Positions 1,176 to 60,737 of a stretch of DNA of 64,000 bases are shown in pieces. This DNA is from Candidatus Nealsonbacteria bacterium (GTDB lineage Bacteria > Patescibacteriota > Minisyncoccia > Minisyncoccales > CAZKCU01). Each line of letters starts with the position of its first letter. Position 1 is the first letter of the stretch. The stretch is taken from the NCBI GenBank assembly GCA_047456305.1, contig CP179888.1, positions 509,307 to 573,306 of the forward strand, given 5' to 3'. Below the pieces are notes generated by a model. It was given only the letters and a program-made list of their open reading frames with translations, ran no database searches and was not told the origin of the DNA. A program made the position numbers and the translations under genes.

Positions 1176-1180
1176 ATAGT

Positions 1181-1231
1181 CAATGAGCTTTGCTCATTTC
1201 CACCTTCGTCTTAATAAATTAAGACTCGGTA
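1181..1231 (+). repeat. GC-rich nested-hairpin mini-element copy (intergenic)
   Basis: aatgagc-ttt-gctcatt hairpin, then tccaccttcg, then gtcttaat/attaagac hairpin, then ctcggta. Same architecture as 12771-12928 and 59400-59453. Confidence 0.6.
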
Positions 1232-11140: not shown

Positions 11141-12780
11141 TGCCACTTTTAACTTCTAACTTAAAAGTAAAATTTTTAGGAATTATTCCTATCTTGAAAA
11201 ACCAGATAGGAGTTTTAAATCCTCAACAAATTGTGGCCCTCTCCAGCCTGACAACGTTTAAAGGAAGCTCAATTAAAAAACTTTTAAAAGGAATTAAGAA
11301 AAAAGGTCAAAATTTAGATGAGAGAGTGAAATTAATTTTACAAAAATCTTCTTTAAGGGGGCATGCTTCCTTATCTACTACTCCTAGTCTTTGTTTAACA
11401 TTTGAAGGGAGTAAATTCTTAGATTCAGCTTTAACCGGGATTGTTTTTTCTTCATCTTTAATGGCTTCTGGCCGTCGGACTGACACTGCCATTAAAGATA
11501 TTGTTTATCCAGATGAAATCTTTATCAATAAAAAAGCAAGGGAGATTTACAATAAAGTTTCAGAAAAAATTATTGAAACGTTTAATTATTTTAGATCTCA
11601 GGGGGTTAGTAAAGACGAAGCGAGTAAAATTTTACAATATGGAATTTACGGCACAGGTCTTATTCAACTGCCGGTAGAATCAATTATTGCTATAAAAAAA
11701 GAATATGAAGTCGAAAAAGATTGGATGCCGACAGAAATTGGAATACTTTTAAGAAAAATAGAGAAAGAGACAAAGAAATTAGGGATTGACAGGCTTTATG
11801 CTACCCGCCAGGTTGCTCCGAGAAATGCATATCCTTATCCTAATATTTTTAAAAATCCGAAAAAATCAAACATTGTTCGTGAAATAAGAAAAAAACAAAG
11901 ATTATTTAAAGGAATAAAATTAATCTCAATGGATACTTTAATTAGGCCAGCTTTGAAGAAAAAACTCGCCGAGTTAGAAAAAAAGAGCCGAAAAACATTT
12001 AGTTCTTTAAAACAAATTAAAAAAAATTGGATGGAACTTCTTGATTTGCGTCAGGAAATTCTTAGAGACTACAATTTAGCTTTAAGATTTAAAGTATTGT
12101 CTTCTATACCTTGGCGAGTCTGGGGAGAAAAAAAACGGCATAGAACTGTACCTCAGACTATAGAGTCAATATATTATTGCATTGAAAGAGCAATAAAGAA
12201 ATTTAACAAATTAACCGCTACGCAGAAATTGCGTAACAATTTTAAAAAGCAAATTGAGAAAACAAAAATTAATAAAAAATTAGTAAAAGAAATAGAAGAA
12301 GTTTTTTCCATTCCTCCCTCAATCAAAAAAAATCCTGAATTTTTGTCAGAATATCTTTTAACTGCCTTAAAATCTTTTGAAGGTTATCAAAATTTACTTA
12401 AATTAAAAATTAAACCCAGAGAAGCTATTTTTTTAATTCCTCGGGCAGTAAAAATTGATATTTTGCAGGATTATGATTTCTACAACCTTTTAACCGGATA
12501 TTATCCGCTTAGATTATGCCCAACTGCTGAAGAGGAAATGAGAAGAAATACTTTAAAAGAAGTTTTGGAAATCAAAAAGACCTTAAAAGAAAAAGGATAT
12601 GGCTGGCTGAATAGATTTATTGGTCCCAAATGTCAAATTATGGGTTTTTGTCCGGAAGAAAAAAGTTGCGGTATGATTTTGAGTTCAGTTAAAAATTACA
12701 ATGAAAAATTTCACCAGGAGATGAAAGATGAGTTAAAAAAGAGATTTAAAAAAAATTTAAAAAATTTAGGTAGGCGATGA
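11140..12780 (+). CDS. ThyX-family flavin-dependent thymidylate synthase, long (about double-length) form
   Basis: 546 aa. The C-terminal half carries the ThyX RHR-x7-S motif (KRHRTVPQTIESIYY). The N-terminal half resembles a degenerate second ThyX half (LRGHASLSTTPSLCLTFEGS). The last codons and stop lie inside the repeat cluster. Confidence 0.6.
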   Translation: MPLLTSNLKVKFLGIIPILKNQIGVLNPQQIVALSSLTTFKGSSIKKLLKGIKKKGQNLDERVKLILQKSSLRGHASLSTTPSLCLTFEGSKFLDSALTGIVFSSSLMASGRRTDTAIKDIVYPDEIFINKKAREIYNKVSEKIIETFNYFRSQGVSKDEASKILQYGIYGTGLIQLPVESIIAIKKEYEVEKDWMPTEIGILLRKIEKETKKLGIDRLYATRQVAPRNAYPYPNIFKNPKKSNIVREIRKKQRLFKGIKLISMDTLIRPALKKKLAELEKKSRKTFSSLKQIKKNWMELLDLRQEILRDYNLALRFKVLSSIPWRVWGEKKRHRTVPQTIESIYYCIERAIKKFNKLTATQKLRNNFKKQIEKTKINKKLVKEIEEVFSIPPSIKKNPEFLSEYLLTALKSFEGYQNLLKLKIKPREAIFLIPRAVKIDILQDYDFYNLLTGYYPLRLCPTAEEEMRRNTLKEVLEIKKTLKEKGYGWLNRFIGPKCQIMGFCPEEKSCGMILSSVKNYNEKFHQEMKDELKKRFKKNLKNLGRR

Positions 12781-12928
12781 GAACTTCGTTCTCATCTTCA
12801 GCTACCCAAGTCGCAGCGAAGGGTGGAGAAGAGATTTATCTCTTCGACTCGCTTCCTATGGAAGCTCGGTAGTCGATGAAGCTAAAGCTTCATCTCCACG
12901 CTTCACTCGGCTTCACCTCGCTCGCGTA
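12771..12928. repeat. Tandem cluster of 3-4 GC-rich nested-hairpin mini-elements
   Basis: Hairpins gatgagaac/gttctcatc, gaagagat/atctcttc and gatgaagc/gcttcatc, with the shared words cgcagcgaagggtg, tccacgcttc, gaagctcggta and ctcgcgta. Confidence 0.85.
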
Positions 12929-12929
12929 A

Positions 12930-13469
12930 ATGATTATAGGGGTAAAAAAACTTTTAAAATTAGTTAAAGAAAAAAAACTAATAGAAAACCTTTCTGAAAG
13001 AGAGCTAATCAATCCTGAAGGAGCTGGTTTTGATTTAAGAATAGGGGAGTTATATACTTTAAAGGGAAGGGGATTTTTAGGAATTAAAGAAAGAAAAACG
13101 CCAGAAATAAAATTAGTTTCTAAATATTATAAAAAGAACGCAAAAAAAGTAATTCTTCAACCCAAAACCTATTACTTAATGAAAACTATCGAAAAATTAA
13201 ATATGCCGAATAATCTTTTAGCTCTTTTTACTCCTCGTTCCACCTTTTATCGTTCAGGGGTTTATATTTTTGGTGGTCAAACTGCCCCCGGCTACAAGGG
13301 TGAATTAACCACTGGGATTTACAATTTTAGAAATGAAAAATTTGAATTAGAAATGGGTTCCAGAGTTTTACACCTGATGTTTTTTGAAGTCAAAGGAAAA
13401 TCAAATTTATACCGTGGACAATGGCAAGGCGGTAGAATTACCACCAAGAAAAAAGAAAAGCAAATTTAA
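12930..13469 (+). CDS. dCTP deaminase/dUTPase-superfamily protein (dUTPase-like second paralog)
   Basis: 179 aa. GAGFDLRIGELY, TPRSTFYRSGV and APGYKGELTTGIYN. Lacks the Glu at the dcd catalytic position, so a dUTP-hydrolysing role is inferred. Confidence 0.65.
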   Translation: MIIGVKKLLKLVKEKKLIENLSERELINPEGAGFDLRIGELYTLKGRGFLGIKERKTPEIKLVSKYYKKNAKKVILQPKTYYLMKTIEKLNMPNNLLALFTPRSTFYRSGVYIFGGQTAPGYKGELTTGIYNFRNEKFELEMGSRVLHLMFFEVKGKSNLYRGQWQGGRITTKKKEKQI

Positions 13470-14735: not shown

Positions 14736-16265
14736 ATGTATCAACCCGTCATCGGCCTGGAAATCCATGTTGAATTAAATACTAAGAGTAAGATGTTTTG
14801 TGGTTGCGCTAATGATTCCGATGAGCATCATCCTAACATTCTAATATGTCCAACATGTCTTGGACACCCGGGAAGTCTTCCAGTGATTAATAAAGAAGCT
14901 GTAAGAAAAACAATAAAAACAGGTCTATCTTTAAATTGCCAAATTCCTGAATATTCTAAGTTTGACCGGAGACTTTATTTCTATCCCGATTTACCAAAAG
15001 GATACCAAATTTCTCAATGGAAGGAGCCTCTTTGTAAGGGAGGATTTTTAGAAATTGAGGGCAAAAAAATAAGGATTAAAGAAATTCATTTAGAGGAAGA
15101 CGTTGGAAGATTAGTTCATGAAAGAGACTACAACCCACCCACCGCATCCTCCCGCGCCAAGGGCGCGGGCCCCTACTCTTTGGTAGATTTTAATCGAGCC
15201 GGCGTACCTTTAATGGAATTGGATACTGAGCCGGACATGAGGTCGGCAAAAGAGGCCAGGAAATTTGCTGAAGAATTACAATTGATTGTAAGGTATCTGG
15301 GGGTTTCTTCAGCTTTTATGGAAAAGGGAGAAATGAGATGCGATGCAAATATATCATTAACAAAAACAAAAAAGCTTGGGACAAAGGTAGAAATTAAAAA
15401 TTTGAACTCATTTAAAGCAATAGAACAAGGACTGGAGTATGAAATAAAGAGACAAACAGAAATTTTAAACTCTGGTGAAAAGATAACTCAAGAAACTCGA
15501 GGTTGGGATGATGATAGGGGAGTAACGGTTCCTCAAAGAGAAAAAGGAGAAGCGATATTTTCTCCTGAGCCAAATTTACCAATTCTTCATTTGGGAGTGG
15601 CAGATTATATTAATGAAATTAGAGCAGAAATTCCTGAATTACCTCGGCAAAGAAGAGAAAGATTTAAGAAAGAATATCACTTAGATGAAAAGAGTATTGA
15701 AATTTTTGTTCAAAATAAAGATTTTGGCGAGTATTTCGAGAAGGTAGTTTCGGAGTTCGGTCCAAGACTTTCCCAGGAAAAACTTTCAGGATTAATAAAA
15801 TTGGCCACAAATTATTTGATTACTGATTTACAGGGTTTATTAAAAGGAGCTTCAGTTACCCGAGTGAAGCGAAGGGTGAAGATGAACGAACGTTCATCGA
15901 CTGTTGGCGAGGATTTTCTGATTACTCCTGAAAATTTTGCAGAATTTATTACCTTAATTTATACAGGTGCAATTTCAAGTAAAATTGCCAAACAGGTTCT
16001 TGCTGAAATGTTTTCTACCGGCGCTGATCCTTCTCATATTATTGAAGAAAAAGGATTATCGCAGATAACTGATGAAGCTGAGATTGGAAAAATTATAAAA
16101 GAAGTTATTTCTAAAAATCCAAAAGCAGTTCAAGATTTTAAAAAAGGAAAAGAAACAGCTATCCAATTTTTAATCGGTCAAATAATGGCTCAGACAAAAG
16201 GAAAAGCCAATCCCAAAATAGTTAAAGATATTTTGAATAAACAGTTGACCCCCACACCTAATTAG
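14736..16265 (+). CDS. gatB: Asp/Glu-tRNA amidotransferase subunit B
   Basis: Start at ATG 14736 (MYQPVIGLEIHVELNTKSKMFCGC). IHLEEDVGR and a C-terminal YqeY-like domain. Carries two GC-rich in-frame inserts. Confidence 0.95.
   Translation: MYQPVIGLEIHVELNTKSKMFCGCANDSDEHHPNILICPTCLGHPGSLPVINKEAVRKTIKTGLSLNCQIPEYSKFDRRLYFYPDLPKGYQISQWKEPLCKGGFLEIEGKKIRIKEIHLEEDVGRLVHERDYNPPTASSRAKGAGPYSLVDFNRAGVPLMELDTEPDMRSAKEARKFAEELQLIVRYLGVSSAFMEKGEMRCDANISLTKTKKLGTKVEIKNLNSFKAIEQGLEYEIKRQTEILNSGEKITQETRGWDDDRGVTVPQREKGEAIFSPEPNLPILHLGVADYINEIRAEIPELPRQRRERFKKEYHLDEKSIEIFVQNKDFGEYFEKVVSEFGPRLSQEKLSGLIKLATNYLITDLQGLLKGASVTRVKRRVKMNERSSTVGEDFLITPENFAEFITLIYTGAISSKIAKQVLAEMFSTGADPSHIIEEKGLSQITDEAEIGKIIKEVISKNPKAVQDFKKGKETAIQFLIGQIMAQTKGKANPKIVKDILNKQLTPTPN
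15131..15176. repeat. GC-rich hairpin insert inside gatB (insert 1)
   Basis: caacccacccaccgcatcct-cccgcgcc-aag-ggcgcggg-cccc encodes NPPTASSRAKGAGP, lying between the conserved HLEED..H and SLVDFNRAG blocks. Confidence 0.7.
15858..15911 (-). repeat. Nested-hairpin mini-element inside gatB (insert 2, reverse orientation)
   Basis: acccgag-tgaagcgaagggtgaa-gatgaacg-aa-cgttcatc-gac, encoding TRVKRRVKMNERSST. Confidence 0.8.
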
Positions 16266-16274
16266 GTGTAGGGG
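16249..16274 (+). terminator. Hairpin cccccacacc/ggtgtagggg at the gatB stop
   Basis: Stem-loop spans the last gatB codons and the TAG stop. A related hairpin lies at 59565-59593. Confidence 0.4.
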
Positions 16275-16303
16275 TTGACAAAATTAAAATAAAAAAGTAT
16301 AAT
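16275..16303 (+). promoter_or_regulatory. Sigma70-like promoter
   Basis: TTGACA (16275-16280), 17-nt spacer, TATAAT (16298-16303). Confidence 0.5.
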
Positions 16304-16854: not shown

Positions 16855-16920
16855 AATTCAAGAATATATATTTCTTCCTTAGCGAATCAAGGTTCTGAGG
16901 AGCGAAGCGACGAGAGATTC

Positions 16921-30537: not shown

Positions 30538-30551
30538 ACTTGCTCTCCCTC

Positions 30552-30579
30552 TTGACAAATTTAAAGCATATGCTATAAT
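30552..30579 (+). promoter_or_regulatory. Sigma70-like promoter at the left edge of the GC-rich insertion
   Basis: TTGACA (30552-30557), 16-nt spacer, TATAAT (30574-30579). The 12-mer cttgacaaattt recurs at 32248. Confidence 0.5.
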
Positions 30580-30679
30580 GTAGGTGTTAAAGGAGAGAGT
30601 GAATATTTTAATATTATGACGCCACAGACGACTCTCTCCGAGAGTCGCCTGTTGGGTTAAAAGAACTTTGAAAAAAAAT

Positions 30680-30765
30680 ATAGCAAGCGCAGAATTGTTC
30701 GTTGGATATTCAGTGAATAATTCTGTCCTTACTATTTCATAGTAAGGTTTAAAATAAAATAAGGA
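30680..30765 (+). promoter_or_regulatory. Structured RNA motif, copy A (5' leader of the 171-aa ORF)
   Basis: atagcaagcg-cagaattgttc-(14 nt)-gaataattctg, then ccttactat-ttc-atagtaagg, then an A-rich tract and taagga. Paralogous to 31566-31654. Confidence 0.4.
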
Positions 30766-30799
30766 ACGCCCGCCGCAGGCGGGCAAGGAGGTAAAAGCG

Positions 30800-31315
30800 A
30801 TGAATTTAAGAATCGAAGAGTTAGTTGGATCCTTATCTAAAGAAATCGAAAAAGGATGGGGACATGTAAAATTAGGAGAGGAGGTAAAAGAGATTTTAAG
30901 AGGCTATGGGATATGGTTCTACCGCATAATTGATTCCCTGAGCGAGGAAAATATTGCGTGGGAAGTAAGACTCGTGATCAAAAAACTTTCCAAAGCATAT
31001 TTTTTAGAACTTTGGAAAGAAAGGCACGATTTACGAATCGAAAAAATCCTTCACCAACTAATAGAAAATTTGGAGGAGGAAATCAAAGAGTCCAAAGCGC
31101 TTAGGATAGATGCGGCTGGACGACGCTGGGGAAGCAAATTGGATCTCGTCCACTATCAGTTTATCATTGCCGATAGTGGATGTCCTCATCACTTCTATTT
31201 TTGCAAAAACAGAGCAGAGATGGAAGAGATGATGGGAGAGAACCAGTGGGAAATCTTTTCATCCTTGAAAGAATTCGAGGAGTGGGAAGATTGGATATAT
31301 GCTGAGAGGAATTAA
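30800..31315 (+). CDS. Hypothetical protein (GC-richer than surroundings)
   Basis: 171-aa ORF with a strong AAGGAGG RBS. Acidic and Trp-rich C-terminus. No family recognised. Confidence 0.55.
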   Translation: MNLRIEELVGSLSKEIEKGWGHVKLGEEVKEILRGYGIWFYRIIDSLSEENIAWEVRLVIKKLSKAYFLELWKERHDLRIEKILHQLIENLEEEIKESKALRIDAAGRRWGSKLDLVHYQFIIADSGCPHHFYFCKNRAEMEEMMGENQWEIFSSLKEFEEWEDWIYAERN

Positions 31316-31565
31316 CAGGAATCTTCGTTAGCCGGACCGTCCTGACCGGCTGGAAAACAAAAGGGTTGGTGAGGTTCTGGTAATCCAGACAATTGCCTTC
31401 GGGCGATTGCAAGACCTGCCCTCATTGTAAAAAAATAAGGGTTGTATTATAACAATATAGGGAAAGGAATACTCATTTTTGCCCTTCCCTAATCTCCCAA
31501 GTTCAGAATTGACAGAGACCGGGTCTCTGCAAGCTATTCTGGATTTAGGAGATTAGAAATAGTAA

Positions 31566-31654
31566 ATAGCAAGCGCAGAATTGTTCATTGGAATCGCAGT
31601 GAATAATTCTGCCCTTGATATTAAACAAGGTTTAACAATAAAAAATAATAAGGA
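31566..31654 (+). promoter_or_regulatory. Structured RNA motif, copy B (5' leader of the mini-M50 ORF)
   Basis: atagcaagcg-cagaattgttc-(14 nt)-gaataattctg, then ccttg-atattaaa-caagg, then an A-rich tract and taagga. Confidence 0.4.
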
Positions 31655-31667
31655 AAAGAAGGAGGGG

Positions 31668-32054
31668 ATGATGGAGCTACTGGCGGTGATACTATGTCTT
31701 GTACTATGTCTCGTTTTACACGAGGTGGGGCACGCACTGGCTGCCCTTGCGTGCAAAAGGCGAATTAAATTCCTCATAAATAGGGTTGGATTCGCTCTGC
31801 GCCATGACGGAAAAGCCCCCCTTACCCCTTGGCAGAAAATAGTTATTACTATTGCCGGACCGGGCACAAACATAATTGCGGGTCTGGTAGCGCTCATCTT
31901 AGGATGGACACAGATTGCAATGATGCAATTTTTATTTGGCGTCATTAATCTACTGTGGCTATCCCGGAAAGCCGACGGCTACAGGGCGTACAGGGAGGTT
32001 CGGCAGTTATTAATTGGGCTCCGGGGCCGGTCGGGGGCAAATAAGGAAGGGTAG
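31668..32054 (+). CDS. Minimal membrane metalloprotease-like protein (site-2 protease/M50-like HExxH in a TM helix)
   Basis: Start at ATG 31668 after GGAGGGG. LVLHEVGHALAA in TM1, AGPGTNIIAG, and NLLWLSRKADG resembling the S2P NxxPxxxLDG motif. About 128 aa and high GC. Confidence 0.45.
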   Translation: MMELLAVILCLVLCLVLHEVGHALAALACKRRIKFLINRVGFALRHDGKAPLTPWQKIVITIAGPGTNIIAGLVALILGWTQIAMMQFLFGVINLLWLSRKADGYRAYREVRQLLIGLRGRSGANKEG

Positions 32055-32136
32055 ATCGGCAGCTTCAAATAGTTTACCCTTCCTCCTATACTTCAGTTCA
32101 TTTCACAAGAAACGAACTGAAAAATGGGAACTTTTG

Positions 32137-32240
32137 AGGTCAGAAGCGCTCTCACGGAGCGAGAGAAATCTCTCTCCTCGCCTACCGAAGTTTTACTTGT
32201 AAAATTTTGGTGGGCTTCGCTCTGCGGGAGCACTTCTGAT
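32137..32240. repeat. GC-rich structured segment related to the mini-element family
   Basis: Closing stem tcagaagcgctc/gagcacttctga. Internal gagagaaatctctc hairpin. Shares cgcctaccgaag and cttcgctctgcggg words with other copies. Confidence 0.5.
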
Positions 32241-32248
32241 CTTGGGGC

Positions 32249-32276
32249 TTGACAAATTTTTTTAAAACAATACAAT
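32249..32276 (+). promoter_or_regulatory. Sigma70-like promoter upstream of the KH-domain gene
   Basis: TTGACA (32249-32254), 16-nt spacer, TACAAT (32271-32276). Confidence 0.45.
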
Positions 32277-32422
32277 ATTAAAATAGTAGCTTTTTCAGTC
32301 TCGCCGATTCTCCCCTAAAGAAAGAGGGTTAGGTGAGGAGCAAAGGTCGGGCTACTTGAATGAACTAAGCGATTGAATGCAGTCTCCAAATTACGAATAG
32401 CGATTTTGGGGAGTTTAAAAAT

Positions 32423-32749: not shown

Positions 32750-32882
32750 ACTCATAATTCCGCTAAGTTTACAAAAATCTGAAAGCCGTGCTATCATTAA
32801 CCGAGCTTCCATTTAGGGAAGTGAAGGTGAAGAAGAGGACGAATTCCTCTTCGCCTTGATAGTGCGGTTTTCGTTTAATTTT

Positions 32883-33596
32883 ATGATTAAGTTTGATATT
32901 ATTACAATTTTTCCTGAGATTTTTAATTCTTATTTGAAAGAAAGTTTGATTGCCCGGGCTCAAAAAAAGAAATTAATTGAAATTAATATCCACGATTTGA
33001 GAAAATGGACATCCGATGTCCACAAGACGGTGGATGATAGACCTTTTGGGGGAGGAATAGGGATGGTGTTAAAAGTTGAACCGATTTATAAAGCTGTAAA
33101 AGAGATAAATAAACTTGTCTTTGCTAAAGCTTCGGCGAGGCGAGGAAAATCAAAAATAATTTTATTTACTCCAAGAGGAAGAAAATTTAATCAAAAGATG
33201 GCTTATCGGTTGTCAAAATTGAATCAGATAATTATGATTTGCGGTAGATATGAAGGAGTGGATGAGAGAATAGCAAAGTATATTGCCGATTTAGAATTAT
33301 CAATTGGCGATTACGATTTAATGGGAGGAGAATTACCGGCAATGGTGGTTATTGAGGCAACAACTCGATTAATTCCTGGAGTTTTAGGAAAACCAGAATT
33401 ATTAAAAGAAAGAATTACCAAGGAAAAGGGATTTATTGAATATCCTCAATATAGTAGACCGGAAGTTTTTTCGCCCAAGAAGGGAGTTTATTGGAAAGTT
33501 CCTAAGGTTTTGTTATCCGGCTATCACAAAAAAATTGAAGAGTGGCGAAGAAAACATAGAAAGATCATTGAAAACCCGAGCGATAGCGAAGGGTGA
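32883..33596 (+). CDS. trmD: tRNA (guanine37-N1)-methyltransferase
   Basis: Start at MIKFDIITIFPEIF. DDRPFGGGIGMV, CGRYEGVDERI and SIGDYDLMGGELPAMV. The last codons and stop lie in a mini-element. Confidence 0.95.
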   Translation: MIKFDIITIFPEIFNSYLKESLIARAQKKKLIEINIHDLRKWTSDVHKTVDDRPFGGGIGMVLKVEPIYKAVKEINKLVFAKASARRGKSKIILFTPRGRKFNQKMAYRLSKLNQIIMICGRYEGVDERIAKYIADLELSIGDYDLMGGELPAMVVIEATTRLIPGVLGKPELLKERITKEKGFIEYPQYSRPEVFSPKKGVYWKVPKVLLSGYHKKIEEWRRKHRKIIENPSDSEG

Positions 33597-33628
33597 AGAT
33601 GAAGCGATAGCTTCATCGCCTACCGAAA
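33574..33628 (-). repeat. Nested-hairpin mini-element at the trmD 3' end (reverse orientation)
   Basis: acccgag-cgatagcgaagggtgaa-gatgaagc-gata-gcttcatc-gcctaccgaaac. Confidence 0.8.
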
Positions 33629-33680: not shown

Positions 33681-33765
33681 GGGTGCGTAGTCCCATAGGG
33701 GGTGGGATTTGTCTGTAAAACAAACGTCCGTAAGGGCCCCGTCGGTTCGACTCCGACCGCACCCA
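33681..33765 (+). tRNA. tRNA-Tyr (GTA), class II with a long variable arm
   Basis: gggtgcg/cgcaccc acceptor, anticodon arm tttgt-ctgtaaa-acaaa, long variable arm, T-arm gtcgg-ttcgact-ccgac. D-arm parse is uncertain. Confidence 0.7.
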
Positions 33766-33776
33766 CAAGCTTTTTT

Positions 33777-33861: not shown

Positions 33862-34023
33862 ATGCCAGCAAAAAAACCATTTATTAAACTTCAATGTTCT
33901 GAGTGTAAAAGAATAAATTATTATACTCACAAATCAAAAAAAATAATTGAGAAGAAATTAGAATTGAAAAAATTCTGTAAATGGTGTAGAAAGCACACGG
34001 TACATAAAGAGATGAAGAAGTGA
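33862..34023 (+). CDS. rpmG: Ribosomal protein bL33 (below the ORF-track size cutoff)
   Basis: 53 aa: MPAKKPFIKLQCSECKRINYYTHKSKKIIEKKLELKKFCKWCRKHTVHKEMKK*. CxxC...CxxC zinc ribbon typical of L33. Confidence 0.85.
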   Translation: MPAKKPFIKLQCSECKRINYYTHKSKKIIEKKLELKKFCKWCRKHTVHKEMKK

Positions 34024-36675: not shown

Positions 36676-36738
36676 GGATTGAAGAAGTGATGTAAATGGT
36701 GTAGAAAACACACGGTACATAAAGAGATGAAGAAGTAA
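36676..36738 (+). pseudogene. Displaced relic of the rpmG 3' end
   Basis: 63 nt, 56/63 identical to 33961-34023. In the rpmG frame it reads GLKK*CKWCRKHTVHKEMKK*, with an internal TGA. Confidence 0.7.
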
Positions 36739-40296: not shown

Positions 40297-40833
40297 ATGA
40301 CTATCTTAGAGATTAAAAAATATCCAGACCCGATTTTGAGAAAAAAATGCTCGCCCGTCCAAATTTCGCGAAGTAAAACTTGGTCGGGTAAAGAAGTAAA
40401 AGAAATAGCTCCGGATATAAAACAGCTAATTAATGATATGATAGAGACAATGGAAGAAAACAAAGGAGTAGGTTTAGCTGCTCCTCAAGTTGGCATTTTA
40501 AAAAGAATTATCGTTGCCCAGACAGACTATGGGTCTAAGGCTTTTATTAATCCGGAAATTATCAAAAAAACAAAAGAGAAAGAAATTATGGAAGAGGGTT
40601 GTTTGAGTTTTCCCGATCTTTGGCTGAAAGTAGAAAGAGCAAAAGGAGTAGAAATTACCGCCTTAGATAGTAATGGAAACAAAATAAAAGCCGAAGGGCT
40701 TTTAGCTAGAATTCTCCAGCACGAAATTGACCATTTAGATGGCATTTTATTTATCGATAGGATTTCTTTTTGGCAGAGATTGAAAATTAGAAAAAAATTA
40801 AAAGAGATTGAAGAAAAATATGGCTCTCGTTGA
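40297..40833 (+). CDS. def: Peptide deformylase
   Basis: 178 aa. GVGLAAPQVG, EGCLSFP and HEIDHLDG. Has a ~12-aa insert near the N-terminus. Confidence 0.95.
   Translation: MTILEIKKYPDPILRKKCSPVQISRSKTWSGKEVKEIAPDIKQLINDMIETMEENKGVGLAAPQVGILKRIIVAQTDYGSKAFINPEIIKKTKEKEIMEEGCLSFPDLWLKVERAKGVEITALDSNGNKIKAEGLLARILQHEIDHLDGILFIDRISFWQRLKIRKKLKEIEEKYGSR
40352..40390 (+). repeat. GC-rich hairpin insert inside def
   Basis: cgcccgtccaa-atttcgcgaagtaaaac-ttggtcgggta encodes QISRSKTWSGKE, which is extra relative to typical Def. Ends in tcgggta like the family consensus. Confidence 0.55.
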
Positions 40834-41437: not shown

Positions 41438-42393
41438 AATTGCGTTTTTTAATTATAATTTTAATTATTTTTCTTTGCGGTTTTTTTCTTTGGCAGGGGA
41501 TTTATTTGCCAAAAGAAGGGATTTGTCTAGAGGAGAAATTGTTTTTAGTTGAGAAGGGTGAAAATCTTTTTCAGATTGCCGAAAATTTAGAAAAAGAAGA
41601 TTTAATTAAAAATAGATTTTTCTTTGGTTTTTATGTATTAATAAAAGGGGGTCAAGACAAACTTCGGGCCGGGGAGTATTTTTTGAGCCCATCAATGAAT
41701 ATTACTGAAATTGCCAGAAAAATCATTTTAGGAGAAATAGCAAAAATAATGGTGACAATACCAGAAGGGTTTACGGTAAAACAAATTGAAAAGCTACTTG
41801 GATTAAAGTTGCCTGGCAGAGATTTGGAAGGATTTTTGTTTCCCGATACCTATCAATTTCCGTTGAGAGTAGGCGAAGAAGACAAATCTTCTTCTTCACC
41901 CTTCGCTGCGGCTCGGGTAGGCGAAGAAGTGGTTAAAAAAATGCGAGATAATTTTGAGAAAAAACTGACCCAAGATTTACGAGAAGAAATTGAAAAACAA
42001 GGGAAAACGGTCCGGGAAATAGTAATTATGGCTTCTTTAATTGAAAAAGAAGTCAAAACAAAAACAGACAAAAAATTAGTTTCGGGAATTTTGTGGAAGA
42101 GGCGAAATCATAATATTCCCTTACAGGTTGATGCAACTATAAATTACATTACTGGGAAAAAAACCATAAAAGTTTCAATTGAGGAGACTAAAATTGATTC
42201 TCCCTACAACACTTACAAGTATTTGGGCTTACCTTTGGGCCCGATTTGCAATCCGGGCCTTGAAAGTATTGAAGCGGCAATATACCCCAAAAGTAGTCAC
42301 TATTGGTATTATTTGTCAACGTCGAATGGAGAGACCTATTTTAGTGAAACTCTAGAAGATCACAACATTAAAAAAGCAAAATACTTAAAATAA
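41434..42393 (+). CDS. mltG: Endolytic murein transglycosylase MltG (YceG-like)
   Basis: 319 aa. N-terminal TM, EGFLFPDTY, ASLIEKE and SPYNTY. Carries a 48-nt in-frame element. Confidence 0.9.
   Translation: MKLRFLIIILIIFLCGFFLWQGIYLPKEGICLEEKLFLVEKGENLFQIAENLEKEDLIKNRFFFGFYVLIKGGQDKLRAGEYFLSPSMNITEIARKIILGEIAKIMVTIPEGFTVKQIEKLLGLKLPGRDLEGFLFPDTYQFPLRVGEEDKSSSSPFAAARVGEEVVKKMRDNFEKKLTQDLREEIEKQGKTVREIVIMASLIEKEVKTKTDKKLVSGILWKRRNHNIPLQVDATINYITGKKTIKVSIEETKIDSPYNTYKYLGLPLGPICNPGLESIEAAIYPKSSHYWYYLSTSNGETYFSETLEDHNIKKAKYLK
41869..41929 (+). repeat. Nested-hairpin mini-element inside mltG with a 13-bp flanking direct repeat
   Basis: gtaggcgaagaag (41869-41881) recurs at 41917-41929, a 48-nt period. 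Core gaagaaga-caaa-tcttcttc-ttcacccttcgctgcggctcgggt encodes GEEDKSSSSPFAAARV. Confidence 0.85.
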
Positions 42394-43861: not shown

Positions 43862-43975
43862 AGCGAAGAATTAAGAACCTGACTTCGTCAGAACCTTATT
43901 CTTCTTTATAATTTTTCACTCATCGAGCTTTTGTGAAACAAAAGTGAAGATGGAAAAGAGATTTATCTCTTTGAT
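43862..43975. repeat. Degenerate mini-element remnants between rplJ and rplL
   Basis: agcgaagaat...attcttc hairpin and gtgaagatggaaaagagatttatctcttt (compare gggtggagaagagatttatctcttc at 12831). Confidence 0.45.
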
Positions 43976-44557
43976 TTGTTCAAAATTATGGCTGAAGAAA
44001 CAAAAAAAGAAGCTGTTAAAGAAACAAAGGAGGAACCGAAAGAAGAAAAAAAAGAAGAACCTAAAGAAGAGAAAAAAGAAGAAGAGCCAAAAGCTGAAGA
44101 GAAAGAAAAGGAAAAACCTTCTTTAACTGAAGCTCCAGAAAAAAAGGAAGAGAAACCGATAAAGGTTCCAAAGAAGTTTAAAGAACTGGTTGAGGAAATT
44201 GAAAAAATGTCTGTTCTAGACTTGGCGGAATTGGTGAAGGTTTTAGAGAAGAAATTTGGAGTTTCAGCTCAAGCTCCGGTTGCAACTCCGGTAGCTCCAG
44301 CTGAAGGAGTTCCAGCAGGAGGAGAAGTCGAAGAAAAGAGTGTTTTTAATATTGAACTGAAAGAGGTTGGTGAAAAAAAGATTGAGGTAATTAAAACGGT
44401 CCGGGATATTACCCAGAAAGGCTTAAAAGAAGCCAAAGATTTGGTAGATGCAGTAGCTACTGGTCCTCAGATGGTTAAGGAAAATGTCAAAAAGGAAGAA
44501 GCTGAAGAATTAAAGAAAAAATTCGAAGAGGCCGGCGCAAAAGTAGAGCTAAAATAG
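43976..44557 (+). CDS. rplL: Ribosomal protein bL12 with a ~60-aa K/E-rich N-terminal extension
   Basis: The conserved part starts at [31 protein letters not shown] and the C-terminal domain ends in GAKVELK. There is no in-frame ATG between 43988 and the conserved domain. Alternative start at 43988. Confidence 0.85.
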
Positions 44558-47169: not shown

Positions 47170-47300
47170 ACCTTGATTAGTAGAATTGAACTCTTTTAGG
47201 TTGCCCTTTGCCCTTCCGAAGCCTTTGGCGAAGGAGGGTCAGCGGTCATCCTTGTACGCAAATTGGGGCAACCAATAAAGGTTTTGATTTTAGTTTTGCT

Positions 47301-50228: not shown

Positions 50229-52392
50229 TCTGGTATACTTTTAAACCGTTCAAAAGATAGATTATCTTCCCGTTATCAGAGACTGCAAAATCTTTTAGAT
50301 TGTCAAATTTTTCACTTTGGAATTGCTTGATAATTTTGCCAGTTTTGTCTAAAACAATTATTCGGTTCTGAATTGGTTCTAAAATATAAAGATAGGGAAG
50401 ATTTGGCAAAGCAATAATTTTATAAAGTTTTTTTGGATAAGGAAAAAAGTCCAGGCTTAAATCCTTTTGATGTTGACCACCATAATATCGCGAAATCGTG
50501 TTATTTTCTTTCAAAATCCAAATTGAACCATCTACAGCTATAGATTTGCTATCTGTGGCTTTTTTAGTTTCGGAACTTAACCAAAACTGAGGAGAATCTT
50601 TACCTTCTTCTAAAGGGGCAGTATATTTGATAATTTCGCCCTTTTCTGAATCTAAAAAATAAAGATTTATCCGAAACGAAGAAAAATCACTGAAATCAAA
50701 AACCCGAGCCGCAGCGAAGGGTAAAGAAGAGGATTTATCCTCTTCGCCTTCAGGATAAGGTTGTTTCAAAGAGAGGGATTCACCAAATTGACCATTTTTA
50801 AAAGTGGCTATTTTATCTGGTTTTGAAAAAAATAAGATAGCGTCATCAAGGGAGGCGGCTAAATTGAATTTTTGATCAGTTTGAATAAGACTGCCTTCGC
50901 TTCTCTCATTTATTTTAAATAGATTCTGAGAGTAAGGACTAAAAAAATAAAGGTCTTGCTGAGAAATAACCATTTTTTGGGGAATAAGGTCTTCTGAATT
51001 AAATTCAAAAATAAGTTTAGGGTCAGTAATTTTTTCTAATTTGTTTAGATTTTTAAGATGTTCTTCAATAGATTCTTTTAAAGAAGTCGCCTCGTTTTTT
51101 AATTTCCCCTCTTTTGTAGTTAGTGGTAAAATTTCCTGCCAGCTTTCCTTAAATAAAATATTGGCTTTTTCTTCTTCTTTAAAAATTAAAAAATTTTCTG
51201 CTTGATTTATTTTCTCTTGAACTTCATTTAAGACAGCTCTTTGCTTTTTTAATTGCTGTTTTTCTTCTTTCTGAAATATAAAAAATCCTATCAAGAGAAC
51301 AAGAGCTAAAACTAGAACTGAAATTAGGCCTTTCTTTAAATTTTCAGTAATTTTAATTTTTGCTTTGAGATTTGAAGTAGTTGGAAGCTGGAGATGAGGA
51401 ATTTTGATTTTTTTTGTTTTTAATTTAAATTTTAATTGGAGAAGGTGAAAAACATTTTTCACTTTATAAACTAGGCCGCTCAGCTTTTTCTTTAATTTTT
51501 TCGCAATTAAAGTGGCGATGGAGGATAGAAGCTTCTTTAAAATTAGACCAACCTTTACCAATAATCTGATTAGCGGAGAAAGAGCCTCTCTTATTGAGAA
51601 TTTTTCTACTTCTTTTTGGAAAGTAACAATTTTTGGTTTTTCTAAGTGGCCTTCTGCTAAAACTTCTGATAGGTCAATAAAAAGACAAACCCCTGAGATT
51701 TCTGAAAGTCTTTTTTCTTTGGCTTTTAAAATTTCTCTTAATTTTTTCTCGTCAAAAGAGGGCTCTTTAACGAATTTAGTTAATAAACTTTCTGATGAGA
51801 AAAGTTCTTCGCCTTTGTTTGCCTTTTGACGAGTTTTCCCGCCTTCAGCGAGGGCTTCGGCGAAAACAGTAAAAACCTCTTTGGTTAATACCAAAATTTT
51901 ATCATTGACATCCAATTTTCCAGAAACAATATTGATAAATATTTTTAAAGGGTAAGGTTCAATATCTTGAAGGTCGAGATTTTTCCCAATGTCTATTATT
52001 TTACCAGCTCTTAGCAGTAAAATTTTAATATCTCCAACTTTAGTAAAATTTAAATCAAAATTTTTGAGAGACAAAACGGCAAAATTTAAATTTCCTAGCC
52101 AACTAACATTTTCCTTTGAAACCTCACCAGCTAAAAATTCATTTATTTTTTTTAGACCTTCTTTAAAAGATTGTTCTGGTGTTTGAAGAGGCAGGGCATA
52201 GTATCTTCCTTTTATGACTTGAGCTATATTATCCAAAAGCCGGGAATTTTGGGGCAGGGTATTGCGAAGCTCTCCTACCATATAGAGACTTCCCAGTCTT
52301 TTTTCATAAATATTTTCTGGTTCATAACAAAAACTATCAAAGATTAAATCTTCTTTCGCTTCAGGGTTAAAATGTAATTCAAAAATTCGCAT
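50218..52392 (-). CDS. Hypothetical bitopic membrane protein (cytoplasmic N-domain, one TM, beta-rich extracytoplasmic C-domain)
   Basis: 724 aa. TM LISVLVLALVLLIGFFIF. The C-terminal half is rich in short beta-strand repeats. Carries an in-frame mini-element. Its 3' end overlaps the convergent 49104-50228 gene by 11 nt. Confidence 0.6.
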   Translation of the reverse strand: MRIFELHFNPEAKEDLIFDSFCYEPENIYEKRLGSLYMVGELRNTLPQNSRLLDNIAQVIKGRYYALPLQTPEQSFKEGLKKINEFLAGEVSKENVSWLGNLNFAVLSLKNFDLNFTKVGDIKILLLRAGKIIDIGKNLDLQDIEPYPLKIFINIVSGKLDVNDKILVLTKEVFTVFAEALAEGGKTRQKANKGEELFSSESLLTKFVKEPSFDEKKLREILKAKEKRLSEISGVCLFIDLSEVLAEGHLEKPKIVTFQKEVEKFSIREALSPLIRLLVKVGLILKKLLSSIATLIAKKLKKKLSGLVYKVKNVFHLLQLKFKLKTKKIKIPHLQLPTTSNLKAKIKITENLKKGLISVLVLALVLLIGFFIFQKEEKQQLKKQRAVLNEVQEKINQAENFLIFKEEEKANILFKESWQEILPLTTKEGKLKNEATSLKESIEEHLKNLNKLEKITDPKLIFEFNSEDLIPQKMVISQQDLYFFSPYSQNLFKINERSEGSLIQTDQKFNLAASLDDAILFFSKPDKIATFKNGQFGESLSLKQPYPEGEEDKSSSLPFAAARVFDFSDFSSFRINLYFLDSEKGEIIKYTAPLEEGKDSPQFWLSSETKKATDSKSIAVDGSIWILKENNTISRYYGGQHQKDLSLDFFPYPKKLYKIIALPNLPYLYILEPIQNRIIVLDKTGKIIKQFQSEKFDNLKDFAVSDNGKIIYLLNGLKVYQINF
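50702..50748 (-). repeat. Nested-hairpin mini-element inside the 724-aa gene (forward relative to the gene)
   Basis: Gene-sense ggcgaagagga-taaa-tcctcttc-tttacccttcgctgcggctcgggt encodes GEEDKSSSLPFAAARV. Confidence 0.85.
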
Positions 52393-59376: not shown

Positions 59377-59399
59377 AAATATTAAACCCTTTACCCTCA

Positions 59400-59453
59400 G
59401 GCGAAGAGAACTTCGTTCTCTTCTTCACCTTCGCTTCCTTCGGAAGCTCGGTA
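59400..59453 (+). repeat. Nested-hairpin mini-element (intergenic, forward)
   Basis: ggcgaagagaac-ttc-gttctcttc-ttcaccttcgc-ttcc-ttcg-ggaa-gctcggta. Confidence 0.85.
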
Positions 59454-59635
59454 ACTAAAGAAGTTAAGGGAAAGCAGGTTTTAATTCCCTCTCTACAAAA
59501 AAGGGGAATTATTACGACCTTTTTTTATTAATATCATTATAAATAGCCAAAAACACCTGTCAAGCCCCCACACTTATGCATAGGTGTGGGGGGTCAAGCC
59601 CCAGAAATTAACAATTAAAGGCATGGAAAAGGCTC

Positions 59636-59861: not shown

Positions 59862-60737
59862 ATGAAGAAGCATTGGAAAAAGTTTGTTGTTCTCGCAGTA
59901 GTTATAGCTGTGGTAGCTATGCTTATACTACCCGGTTCTTTGTCTGCTTATGATTGGCCTAATATTACAGTGACAAAAACCGCTGATAAAACATCTGTGG
60001 AGGTAGGAGAAGAAATAACCTATACCTACAAAGTATATAATGGTTATGCTAACTCCTTATACGGAGTCGCACTTGTTGATAGTGAACTTGGTGTTGTCAA
60101 TTTAGGAGGTTTAACTGCTGGTGGTGACCTTAATCCAGGAGCTACAGCTACAGGAACTCTTAAATTTACACCCATGGTAGGTGACATAGGTGACATAGTT
60201 AATACAGCTGAGCTAACTGGTACTATAAGCAATGTTGGTCTTAGAACGACTAGTAGCGAAGTAACTGTTGAAGTTACAGTAGTTCCTGTCCACCAACATA
60301 TAGTAAAATATAATACTAGTGGTGGAACAGGAACTGTACCCGTTGATACTAATTATTGGGTTGGTGACTCTGTAACAGTTACGGAAAATGTCATCACTCG
60401 AGACGGGTGTATTTTTGCGGGTTGGAATAGTGGAAGTAATATTTATTTTGGTGGTGAAACGTTTACAATGCCAGATGGAGATGTTACTTTAACAGCACAG
60501 TGGGACGCTAAAGGTGAAAAAGGTGATACTGGTGATACAGGTCCTGAAGGTAAAGAAGGTCCTGAAGGTCCTGAAGGTCCTGAAGGTGGTACAGGTGGAA
60601 CTGGTGCTGAAGGGGCTGAAGGTGCTGAAGGTGGAACTGGTTCTACAGGTTCACGAGGTCCACAAGGAAGAGCTGGTAAAGACGTTGTAAGGATGTTTTC
60701 ACAAAAGACGGTGGAAATGAAGACCCATGGAGTCTAA
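59862..60737 (+). CDS. Secreted DUF11-like / Listeria-Bacteroides-repeat / collagen-like protein (probably the 5' part of a disrupted TasA-family gene)
   Basis: 291 aa. Signal ...LPGSLSAYDW. ITVTKTADKTSVEVGEEITYTYKVYN (DUF11-like). IFAGWNSGSNIYFGGETFTMPDGDVTLTAQW. 19 Gly-X-Y triplets at 60513-60683. Confidence 0.7.
   Translation: MKKHWKKFVVLAVVIAVVAMLILPGSLSAYDWPNITVTKTADKTSVEVGEEITYTYKVYNGYANSLYGVALVDSELGVVNLGGLTAGGDLNPGATATGTLKFTPMVGDIGDIVNTAELTGTISNVGLRTTSSEVTVEVTVVPVHQHIVKYNTSGGTGTVPVDTNYWVGDSVTVTENVITRDGCIFAGWNSGSNIYFGGETFTMPDGDVTLTAQWDAKGEKGDTGDTGPEGKEGPEGPEGPEGGTGGTGAEGAEGAEGGTGSTGSRGPQGRAGKDVVRMFSQKTVEMKTHGV
60513..60683 (+). repeat. Collagen-like Gly-X-Y repeat region (19 triplets)
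   Basis: GEKGDTGDTGPEGKEGPEGPEGPEGGTGGTGAEGAEGAEGGTGSTGSRGPQGRAGKD, with ggtcctgaa and ggtgctgaa tandem 9-mers. Confidence 0.9.

Follow-up and report, generated by a model that had tools for sequence, protein, structure and literature searches.

Short double-hairpin elements, probably mobile, inside and between the genes of Candidatus Nealsonbacteria

A 64,000-nucleotide stretch of a Candidatus Nealsonbacteria genome (GenBank assembly GCA_047456305.1, contig CP179888.1, forward-strand positions 509,307 to 573,306; hereafter the window) carries, between and inside its genes, copies of a short element that folds into two adjacent hairpins and occupies at least 11 places, about one per 5 kb. An earlier note, made from the letters alone, had described these copies as a family of GC-rich "nested-hairpin" mini-elements with a unit of about 47 nt, and had compared them with REP/BIME elements (repetitive extragenic palindromes and the bacterial interspersed mosaic elements built from them) and with the Rickettsia palindromic elements (RPEs). 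The recurrent unit that it wrote out is indeed found where it had been placed, and all seven complementary stem pairs that it quoted are present in the sequence.

Ten copies were aligned, a covariance model was built from them with both hairpins annotated, and the window was scanned with the filters switched off at E<1e-4. The scan returned 13 matches: the ten training copies (1174-1236, 12798-12853, 12867-12933, 15852-15906, 33568-33625, 41867-41924, 50696-50753, 59395-59458, 61906-61947, and 61954-62008), one good copy that had been overlooked before (32794-32860, minus strand, 36.7 bits, E=8e-11), and two weaker ones, namely the 5' half of a split unit (12768-12809) and a decayed copy (43916-43980). 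The latter had been listed by the earlier note as part of a degenerate copy at 43862-43975, while two further degenerate copies (16878-16920 and 47207-47260) and a copy at 40352-40390, which lies within a peptide deformylase domain, received no support from the model. A copy listed at 32137-32240 proved marginal (11.6 bits, E=0.08); it is a different long hairpin with only a piece resembling hairpin 1. Two short patterns, each allowed at most one mismatch, were more frequent in the window than expected from dinucleotide shuffles (CACCCTTCGC, 7 occurrences vs. 1.1 expected; TAGGCGAWGA, 23 vs. 5.4). The unit is GC-rich, as had been stated, but this property alone is not diagnostic: a GC-island census counted 118 islands in the window at the threshold used and was dropped as an unspecific copy detector. 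The copies and their parts are listed below, with bit scores from the covariance model; L-numbers here and throughout denote loci from related genomes.

1178-1231, plus strand: full unit filling the gap between mreB and gatC (47.7 bits); the tip of hairpin 2 is extended and AT-rich, and folding as single-stranded DNA gives two hairpins (z=-5.1).
12771-12871, plus strand: outer unit, called X, split after TCTTCA by a nested unit (covariance model and thyX-dcd comparison).
12771-12799, plus strand: 5' half of X, which supplies the thyX stop codon (CGA TGA).
About 12849-12871, plus strand: 3' half of X, comprising the tip of hairpin 2 plus GCTCGGTA.
12802-12848, minus strand: unit nested inside X in the opposite orientation (60.5 bits); L035 and L036 also have a unit nested at this relative position.
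12871-12928, plus strand: unit in tandem with X (60 bits), with an ACGC/GCGT variant of the hairpin 2 base, ending 1 nt before the dcd start codon.
15858-15902, minus strand: 45-nt in-frame unit in gatB that adds 15 amino acids (RVKRRVKMNERSSTV; 63.5 bits).
32797-32856, minus strand: full unit directly upstream of trmD (36.7 bits).
33574-33621, minus strand: 48-nt unit at the 3' end of trmD that replaces the native stop codon and adds about 6 amino acids (68 bits).
41871-41918, plus strand: 48-nt in-frame unit in mltG/yceG (GEEDKSSSSPFAAARV; 66.6 bits; Pfam YceG).
41919-41929: 11-nt repeat of the 5' end of the mltG unit, directly after that unit.
43916-43980, minus strand: decayed, AT-enriched copy in the rplJ-rplL spacer (22.1 bits, E=1e-5).
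50702-50749, minus strand: 48-nt in-frame unit in a minus-strand reading frame of 724 amino acids without a Pfam match (GEEDKSSSLPFAAARV; 67 bits).
59399-59452, plus strand: intergenic unit with an extended hairpin 2 tip (GCTTCC-TTCG-GGAAGC; 43.3 bits; fold z=-3.3).
61910-61957, plus strand: variant unit in which hairpin 2 is replaced by GCCC-AAG-GGGC, the first of a head-to-tail pair in the N-terminal region of a ClpB-like reading frame (30 bits).
61958-62002, plus strand: 45-nt unit, the second of the ClpB-like pair, with the ACGC/GCGT variant of the hairpin 2 base (64.7 bits).

As had been noticed before, the stop codons of the thyX-like gene and of trmD lie inside copies. The region 12771-12928, read earlier as 3-4 units in both orientations, resolves into three: X, the inverted unit nested in it, and the tandem unit that follows. 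We define as orientation A the strand that reads A-G-K-C, hairpin 1, the linker TTCACC(C), and hairpin 2. In this orientation the consensus is (T)AGKC-GAWGA…TCWTC-TTCACC(C)TTCGC-tip-GCTCGG(G)T(A), with the 5' conservation of the unit starting at A-G-K-C. Hairpin 1 consists of the GAWGA foot and a freely variable distal stem and loop, while hairpin 2 is built from an ACC(C)/GG(G)T base, a TTC/TC internal loop, a GC/GC step, and a tip that varies. Units range from 45 to 66 nt, with a canonical length of 48 nt, equal to 16 codons. Folding of either strand as single-stranded DNA yields two side-by-side hairpins, the second with a 3/2 internal loop; the term "nested" was thus wrong for the unit itself and fits only units inserted into units.

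The family is widespread among related genomes. An exact-pattern scan, with one genome taken per species, gave 73 loci, and the covariance model was then run over their 0.53 Mb. The exact-pattern matches came from about 27 species-level assemblies, nearly all of them labelled Nealsonbacteria or Parcubacteria (at least 25 related genomes); a few high-GC genomes also matched, as chance predicts. The model found 189 copies in this DNA, so that further copies exist far beyond chance. Among their sources are a single-cell genome (L019, L025, L056, L060) and a single contig of 539 kb (L047). High-scoring copies were also seen on two short contigs labelled Gammaproteobacteria (L042) and Desulfobacterales (L052), which are probably mis-binned contigs of the Candidate Phyla Radiation (CPR). 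The viral contigs of IMG/VR, in which a phage vector was looked for, had no match to the core pattern. Among 80 loci encoding relatives of the window's GatB the presence of copies is patchy, with none in a 14-kb locus at 75% GatB identity, six in a 13-kb locus at 73%, and none in seven 20-kb loci at 49-70% identity, a distribution among close relatives that fits lineage-specific expansions. An exact look-up of the element-bearing GatB sequence returned no record; that of the neighbouring Dcd led to two other independent assemblies in which the 12771-12928 cluster recurs with only 2-4 base differences. Assembly chimerism, which the earlier note had named as a way in which its proposal could fail, therefore does not account for the copies.

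The stems of these copies covary. RNAalifold recovered hairpin 1 from the ten aligned window copies, with compensatory changes at 5 of its 8 pairs. Among the best 150 copies, 94.7% of the cells were paired, compared with 78.9% in shuffles and at most 50% when the partners were slid against each other; 317 cells had double changes (vs. 102), and 11 of the 14 pairs had changes on both sides. G·U pairs made up about 1% of the cells and were a minority (about 15-20%) even of those that were not Watson-Crick. The sequence of hairpin 1 differs in all 12 window copies and is distinct in 43 of 64 unbiased seeds, nearly all of these stems being Watson-Crick perfect.

Orthologous sites that lack the element exist for several copies (gatB, thyX-dcd, and the trmD 3' end). 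We scanned the 80 loci encoding GatB relatives and aligned their proteins and DNA; the essential gene gatB contains three independent sites that are filled in some genomes and empty in others.

gatB site 1, 45 nt: filled only in the window (15858-15902) and in the 98% relative L074, empty in every other aligned GatB locus.
gatB site 2, 48 nt: filled in a subset of lineages; the insert follows ETRGW.
gatB site 3, 60 nt: filled in L096, L099, and L105, empty in the near-identical L095.

An automated flank search extended these to roughly 20 distinct filled/empty pairs, in several of which the flanks are 96-99% identical. Across the pairs the inserts measure 45-66 nt and the ambiguity at the junctions is only 1-3 nt, from which we conclude that there is no target-site duplication; a duplication of TA or longer, considered as a candidate, was contradicted by the clean pairs. 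Insertion was thus repeated, independent, and free of duplication. Between thyX and dcd a graded series was found: in relatives with the empty site (L082, L131, L110, L088) the thyX stop overlaps the dcd start (ATGA), L076 has one unit, and clusters are present in the window, L074, and L145. At the trmD 3' end, the window and L034 carry a unit, L026 has the empty site, and L030 retains a 24-nt remnant. The gatB gene of L105 resembles the backbone of L095 with a patch from L096/L099 that comprises the element plus adjacent polymorphisms; homologous recombination hence also carries copies between lineages, and together with local tandem duplication it adds to their spread. The gatB gene is mosaic in more than one comparison (L080 vs. 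L086/L087; L105 vs. L095 and L096/L099), with DNA-identical stretches beside diverged ones, which indicates frequent homologous recombination among these populations that also moves element-bearing alleles.

Since the covariance model includes a few flank columns, the flanks of the element were measured on 72 unbiased exact-pattern seeds. Insertion took place immediately 5' of an asymmetric A-n-n-Y-R-A-(W-G): after …CTCGGGT the flank reads A (83%), n, n, Y (83%), R (96%), A (97%), w, G (56%). Y-R-A occupies positions +4 to +6 in 58 of the 72 seeds against a background of 7.4% (p about 3e-52). Because empty alleles carry the motif as well (TGAAGC, GATGATG, TATGATT, and others), it is target sequence and not a part of the element. 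Two parts of the element fit this target pattern themselves: its head, AGKCGAWG (A-nn-Y-R-A-W-G), and its linker in reverse complement (TCTTCA, giving TGAAGA). Such mimicry of the target by head and linker predicts head-to-tail arrays and nested inverted units, and both were observed. L033 contains a head-to-tail array with a period of 48, some neighbouring units of which are identical, pointing to local duplication as well. Nested units of opposite orientation sit at fixed positions of the resident unit: the window, L035, and L036 have them after TCTTCACC, L034 and L145 in the tip of hairpin 2. New copies accordingly land head-to-tail beside resident ones or inverted within them, and BIME-like clusters such as that at 12771-12928 result.

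The element is also common within genes: 91 of 205 non-redundant copies (44%) lie well inside open reading frames (ORFs) of at least 120 amino acids. With ORFs making up about 86% of the window, this share amounts to a roughly 8-fold depletion within coding sequence, where copies are numerous all the same. Of the sense copies, 39 of 41 share one frame, with the peptide G/V-E/D-E-x-K-SSSSPFAxARV; of the antisense copies, 18 of 22 do so, with the peptide TRAxAKGEEExxSSSP; the remaining frames contain stop codons. Of the in-ORF lengths measured, 22 of 23 are divisible by three. In the window the host genes are gatB, mltG/yceG, the gene for a ClpB-like ATPase, and that for the 724-residue protein without a Pfam family; the inserts in gatB and mltG fall at gaps in alignments to solved structures (PDB), and the ClpB-like pair lies in the N-terminal region of an ORF with a predicted start codon. 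Copies in genes would survive only when their length is a multiple of three and they occupy the single stop-free frame of their orientation. From these frame constraints we infer that in-ORF copies are translated as hydrophilic inserts of 15-20 residues.

Other inserts were noted in gatB. The gene has a second, unrelated in-frame insert of about 14 amino acids (…NPPTASSRAKGAGP…; window 15150-15200, minus strand), which the window and L074 alone possess and all 42 other GatB loci lack. Its minus-strand sequence, GTAG-GG-GCCCGCGCC-CTT-GGCGCGGG, is that of a classic perfect palindrome with a GTAG tag, and the window has a single copy of it. L096 alone has a further GC-rich in-frame insert (STFAKGYGGPAEALREGG, about 2200-2300), and L092, L100, L111-L113, L121, L129, and L142 share a hypervariable hotspot after NISL with inserts of up to about 25 amino acids; the L096 insert and those of the hotspot may represent additional insert families.

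Taken together, the many further copies, the orthologous empty sites, and the lack of chimerism support the comparison with REP/BIME elements and RPEs that was drawn in the earlier note, and we consider it probable that the unit represents a family of non-autonomous mobile elements that act at the DNA level and behave much like REPs and RPEs. The note had also read the covariation of the stems as a sign of selection, or of a mechanism, acting on structure; this holds, and the data narrow it to mobility or a palindrome-restoring mechanism rather than a host RNA. Strong covariation, and the many copies placed precisely at the ends of genes or in the space from a stop codon to the following start codon, are what one would expect of cis-acting RNA structures selected by the host, such as terminators, mRNA-stabilizing hairpins, or translational regulators, and an RNA function has been suggested for REPs (PMC3733652). 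We nevertheless regard this explanation as improbable. The orientation of intergenic copies between co-directional genes is random relative to transcription (26 vs. 31), 44% of the copies reside within ORFs, and G·U pairs are not enriched. Close relatives do without the element at the same sites, where their junctions are tighter and include the ATGA stop/start overlap. In old copies at orthologous positions, uncompensated stem changes accumulate: we counted 0 compensated and about 9 uncompensated changes in a small sample compared by eye plus three automated pairs, two of which had one-sided changes. Such changes affect gatB site 2 in L079, L080, and L110, hairpin 2 in the L078 group, and trmD in L034. 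No Rfam family matched the element; searches of the whole window at the gathering threshold and of the cluster at an E-value threshold returned only tRNAs, an L10 leader, and chance matches. The copies thus have neither the fixed orientation nor the G·U tolerance nor the compensation in orthologues of a cis-regulatory RNA, and since their orientation is balanced, G·T pairs are unfavoured, and decay is uncompensated, the hairpins appear to serve mobility and not a host RNA function; individual copies could still have been co-opted by the host as RNA structures. The simplest reading is that intact hairpins are needed for mobilization, and that covariation builds up among source copies while resident copies decay. 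The hairpins would then be recognition structures for a trans-acting enzyme, a role that explains why stems covary between copies but are not repaired in place.

The perfect yet hypervariable stems of hairpin 1 might also be the product of a mechanism, either template switching with quasi-palindrome correction or re-synthesis of one arm during transposition, so that covariation would be a mutational signature; this concerns the cause of the covariation and not mobility as such. The diversity and near-perfect Watson-Crick pairing of hairpin 1 and the rarity of G·T intermediates speak for such a mechanism. The single-arm changes that persist in old copies (L079, L080, L110, L034) should have been removed by fast correction, hairpin 1 is not copied from the flanking target, and the same hairpin 1 variants occur in different genomes, as for inherited subfamilies; we therefore judge it rather unlikely, without dismissing it. 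(A copying of one hairpin 1 arm from the target was rejected as a candidate because hairpin 1 and the 3' flank do not correspond within copies, except at 41869, where a partial second unit follows.) Far less credible is a repeat at the protein level, in which the module SSSSPFAxARV would be selected in many proteins and likeness at the nucleotide level would be secondary. The peptide is conserved and read in a single frame in nearly all sense copies, but half of the copies are intergenic, antisense copies encode another peptide, conservation is at the nucleotide level and includes the hairpin covariation, stops in the other frames explain the frame restriction, and close orthologues function without the insert; we give this alternative almost no weight. 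A classical miniature inverted-repeat transposable element (MITE), derived by deletion from a DDE-transposase insertion sequence and marked by terminal inverted repeats and target-site duplications, would likewise be short, abundant, interspersed, and devoid of transposase coding, and the units often abut TA. The unit has no terminal inverted repeats, its 5' end (AGGCGAAG) being unlike the reverse complement of its 3' end (ACCCGAGC); the filled/empty pairs lack a duplication, with a TA duplication contradicted at several sites; and no insertion sequence was found by Pfam in the window, by phmmer in 1.33 Mb, or among the ORFs bracketed by elements. A MITE is accordingly very improbable.

If the unit is a mobile element, as we favor, an enzyme of the HUH type that nicks and joins single strands (RAYT, the REP-associated tyrosine transposase, or an IS200/IS605- or IS91-like enzyme) might mobilize it. 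Subterminal hairpins at both ends, a strand-specific flanking target, the absence of a duplication, and an end that mimics the target point to such an enzyme, and by analogy with these systems we put it forward as a tentative possibility. Several observations weigh against it, or against mobility altogether. No mobilizing enzyme was found: Pfam annotation of about 50 window ORFs returned housekeeping genes and an MjaI-type restriction-modification pair only, and the ORFs bracketed by elements are ordinary housekeeping genes. In phmmer searches of all ORFs of at least 70 amino acids in 1.33 Mb of partial genomes, IS608 TnpA, IS200 TnpA, and Escherichia coli RAYT had zero matches, although a single-sequence RAYT query reaches divergent groups poorly. 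(The IS608 TnpA and RAYT queries were validated against PDB 2A6M and 4ER8; the former reaches distant family members at 1e-20.) The cognate RAYT/TnpA-Y1 or other nuclease gene that the earlier note had suggested thus did not turn up in the window, among the bracketed ORFs, or in the 1.33 Mb. Orientation is balanced not only between genes, as given above, but also within the window (7 plus, 6 minus), whose GC skew is uniformly positive. The conserved target bases lie about 3 variable nt from the insertion point; IS608 cleaves directly beside its target tetranucleotide. The lagging-strand bias of IS200/IS605 elements (PMC6006769) is not seen here, TnpA was not found in the 1.33 Mb, and the unit has only 48 nt. 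No insertion polymorphism was seen between the window and its 98% relative, which lends no support to current activity, and the translation of in-ORF copies is read from frame statistics only. It is rather doubtful, though conceivable, that machinery not yet known as a transposase moves the element, either new hairpin-specific nicking and joining enzymes or host replication and repair. Such machinery would read the folded double hairpin together with the A-nn-Y-R-A target and would regenerate a perfect hairpin 1 palindrome with each move; if so, a new type of selfish DNA would persist in CPR genomes of less than 1 Mb and continually remodel their essential proteins, 16 residues at a time.

Among known systems, RPEs are interspersed palindromes in a reduced genome that sit in frame in unrelated housekeeping genes and also between genes (PMC10969869; PMC3733652). 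RPE-1 and the shorter RPE-4 and RPE-6 share with the unit in-frame insertion with a conserved encoded peptide. RPEs measure about 150 bp according to a review (PMC10969869), in contrast to a unit of 45-66 nt with two defined hairpins; the unrelated CPR/Nealsonbacteria host, the intragenic share of 44%, and the asymmetric, self-mimicked target also set the unit apart, a distinction drawn by description. With the GTAG REPs, BIMEs, and REPINs that depend on RAYTs it shares a short GC-rich palindrome behind (G)TAG, or a sequence resembling it, plus a dinucleotide, clusters of alternating orientation, some intragenic copies, and the lack of terminal inverted repeats (PMC3733652; PMC8266576). For GTAG/CGTC REPs, too, subfamilies with complementary stems, termini that provide stop codons, and copies within genes are documented (PMC3733652). 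In most REP families over 90% of the members keep the tag GTAG, whereas in the unbiased seeds studied here A reaches 87% and G 96%, and the upstream T and G only 54% and 48%, values that would suit a degenerate tag but fall short of a clear GTAG; the tag is followed by K-C and the stem. A REP unit is a single palindrome of 20-50 nt and the mobile REPIN or BIME consists of two inverted REPs, while hairpin 2 is not an inverted hairpin 1; hairpin 1 with its tag would by itself fit a REP unit. REPs are predominantly extragenic, in contrast to the 91 of 205 intragenic copies reported here, G·T pairs were often observed in the REP survey and are rare in our element, and a cognate RAYT, typically flanked by its REPs, was not found in the 1.33 Mb.

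Absence of a target duplication and insertion beside a specific flanking target are traits of IS200/IS605 elements. The unit combines subterminal hairpins, no duplication, and a short one-sided target, with the conserved bases about 3 nt away from the junction. IS200/IS605 elements likewise have subterminal hairpins at their two ends (PMC8266576, PMC6006769), and their choice of cleavage site is strand-specific (PMC8266576). As judged from full-text literature searches, elements of this kind have not been described in CPR/Patescibacteria, and a 2024 review on MITEs does not mention these bacteria. The fungal mitochondrial double-hairpin elements and GC clusters are short, GC-rich sequences that have spread in AT-rich compact genomes, occasionally into coding regions; they are organellar and unrelated in sequence, so that the likeness is by analogy only. 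The CPR unit differs from RPEs and REPs in the 48-nt double hairpin, the partly conserved tag, the high intragenic share, the self-mimicked asymmetric target, and the host lineage.

The window contains other repeats and features. Similar palindromes (CCCCCACAC…GTGTGGGGG) lie at 16248-16275 and 59565-59592, one of them at the gatB stop, and GGGGCTTGAC(A) motifs recur at 32246-32257 and 59552-59607; these could be another small repeat family or promoter or terminator signals. A GC-richer block of about 1.9 kb (30540-32420) interrupts the usual order rpsP-KH-trmD and contains 70-nt direct repeats (30667-30736 and 31553-31622, 81% identical), ORFs without a Pfam match, a fragment of an M50-like peptidase, and the long hairpin at 32137-32240 (-26 kcal/mol). 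Direct repeats of 59 nt (33963-34021 and 36678-36736, 92% identical) bracket genes for a trypsin-like protease, an MjaI-type restriction endonuclease, and an N4/N6 DNA methylase; this block stands beside tRNA genes and is thus likely an integrated island. At 33681-33766 ARAGORN calls an 86-nt "tRNA-Phe (aaa)", whose length, together with the anticodon loop CTGTAAA of the L030 orthologue, suggests a class II tRNA-Tyr (GTA). A surface-protein-like ORF (59862-60737) with Listeria-Bacteroides repeat domains includes a collagen-like Gly-X-Y repeat (60504-60647; GGT CCT GAA…).

CPR bacteria are regarded as extremely streamlined. In the genomes studied here a short, probably selfish element splits overlapping gene junctions and has repeatedly put 15-20 predicted residues into essential proteins, including GatB (at three sites), MltG, and a ClpB-like protein; streamlined CPR genomes, too, would thus carry proliferating mobile DNA, tolerated through its probable translation. 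The family offers an unusually compact case of hairpin-dependent, duplication-free, target-specific insertion with a built-in account of tandem arrays and inverted clusters. It will break short-read assemblies, shift annotated stop and start codons, and yield spurious "lineage-specific inserts" in CPR marker-gene alignments and phylogenies. The covariance model can be used for masking copies, and the sites at which copies are present or absent can be used as markers of strains and lineages.

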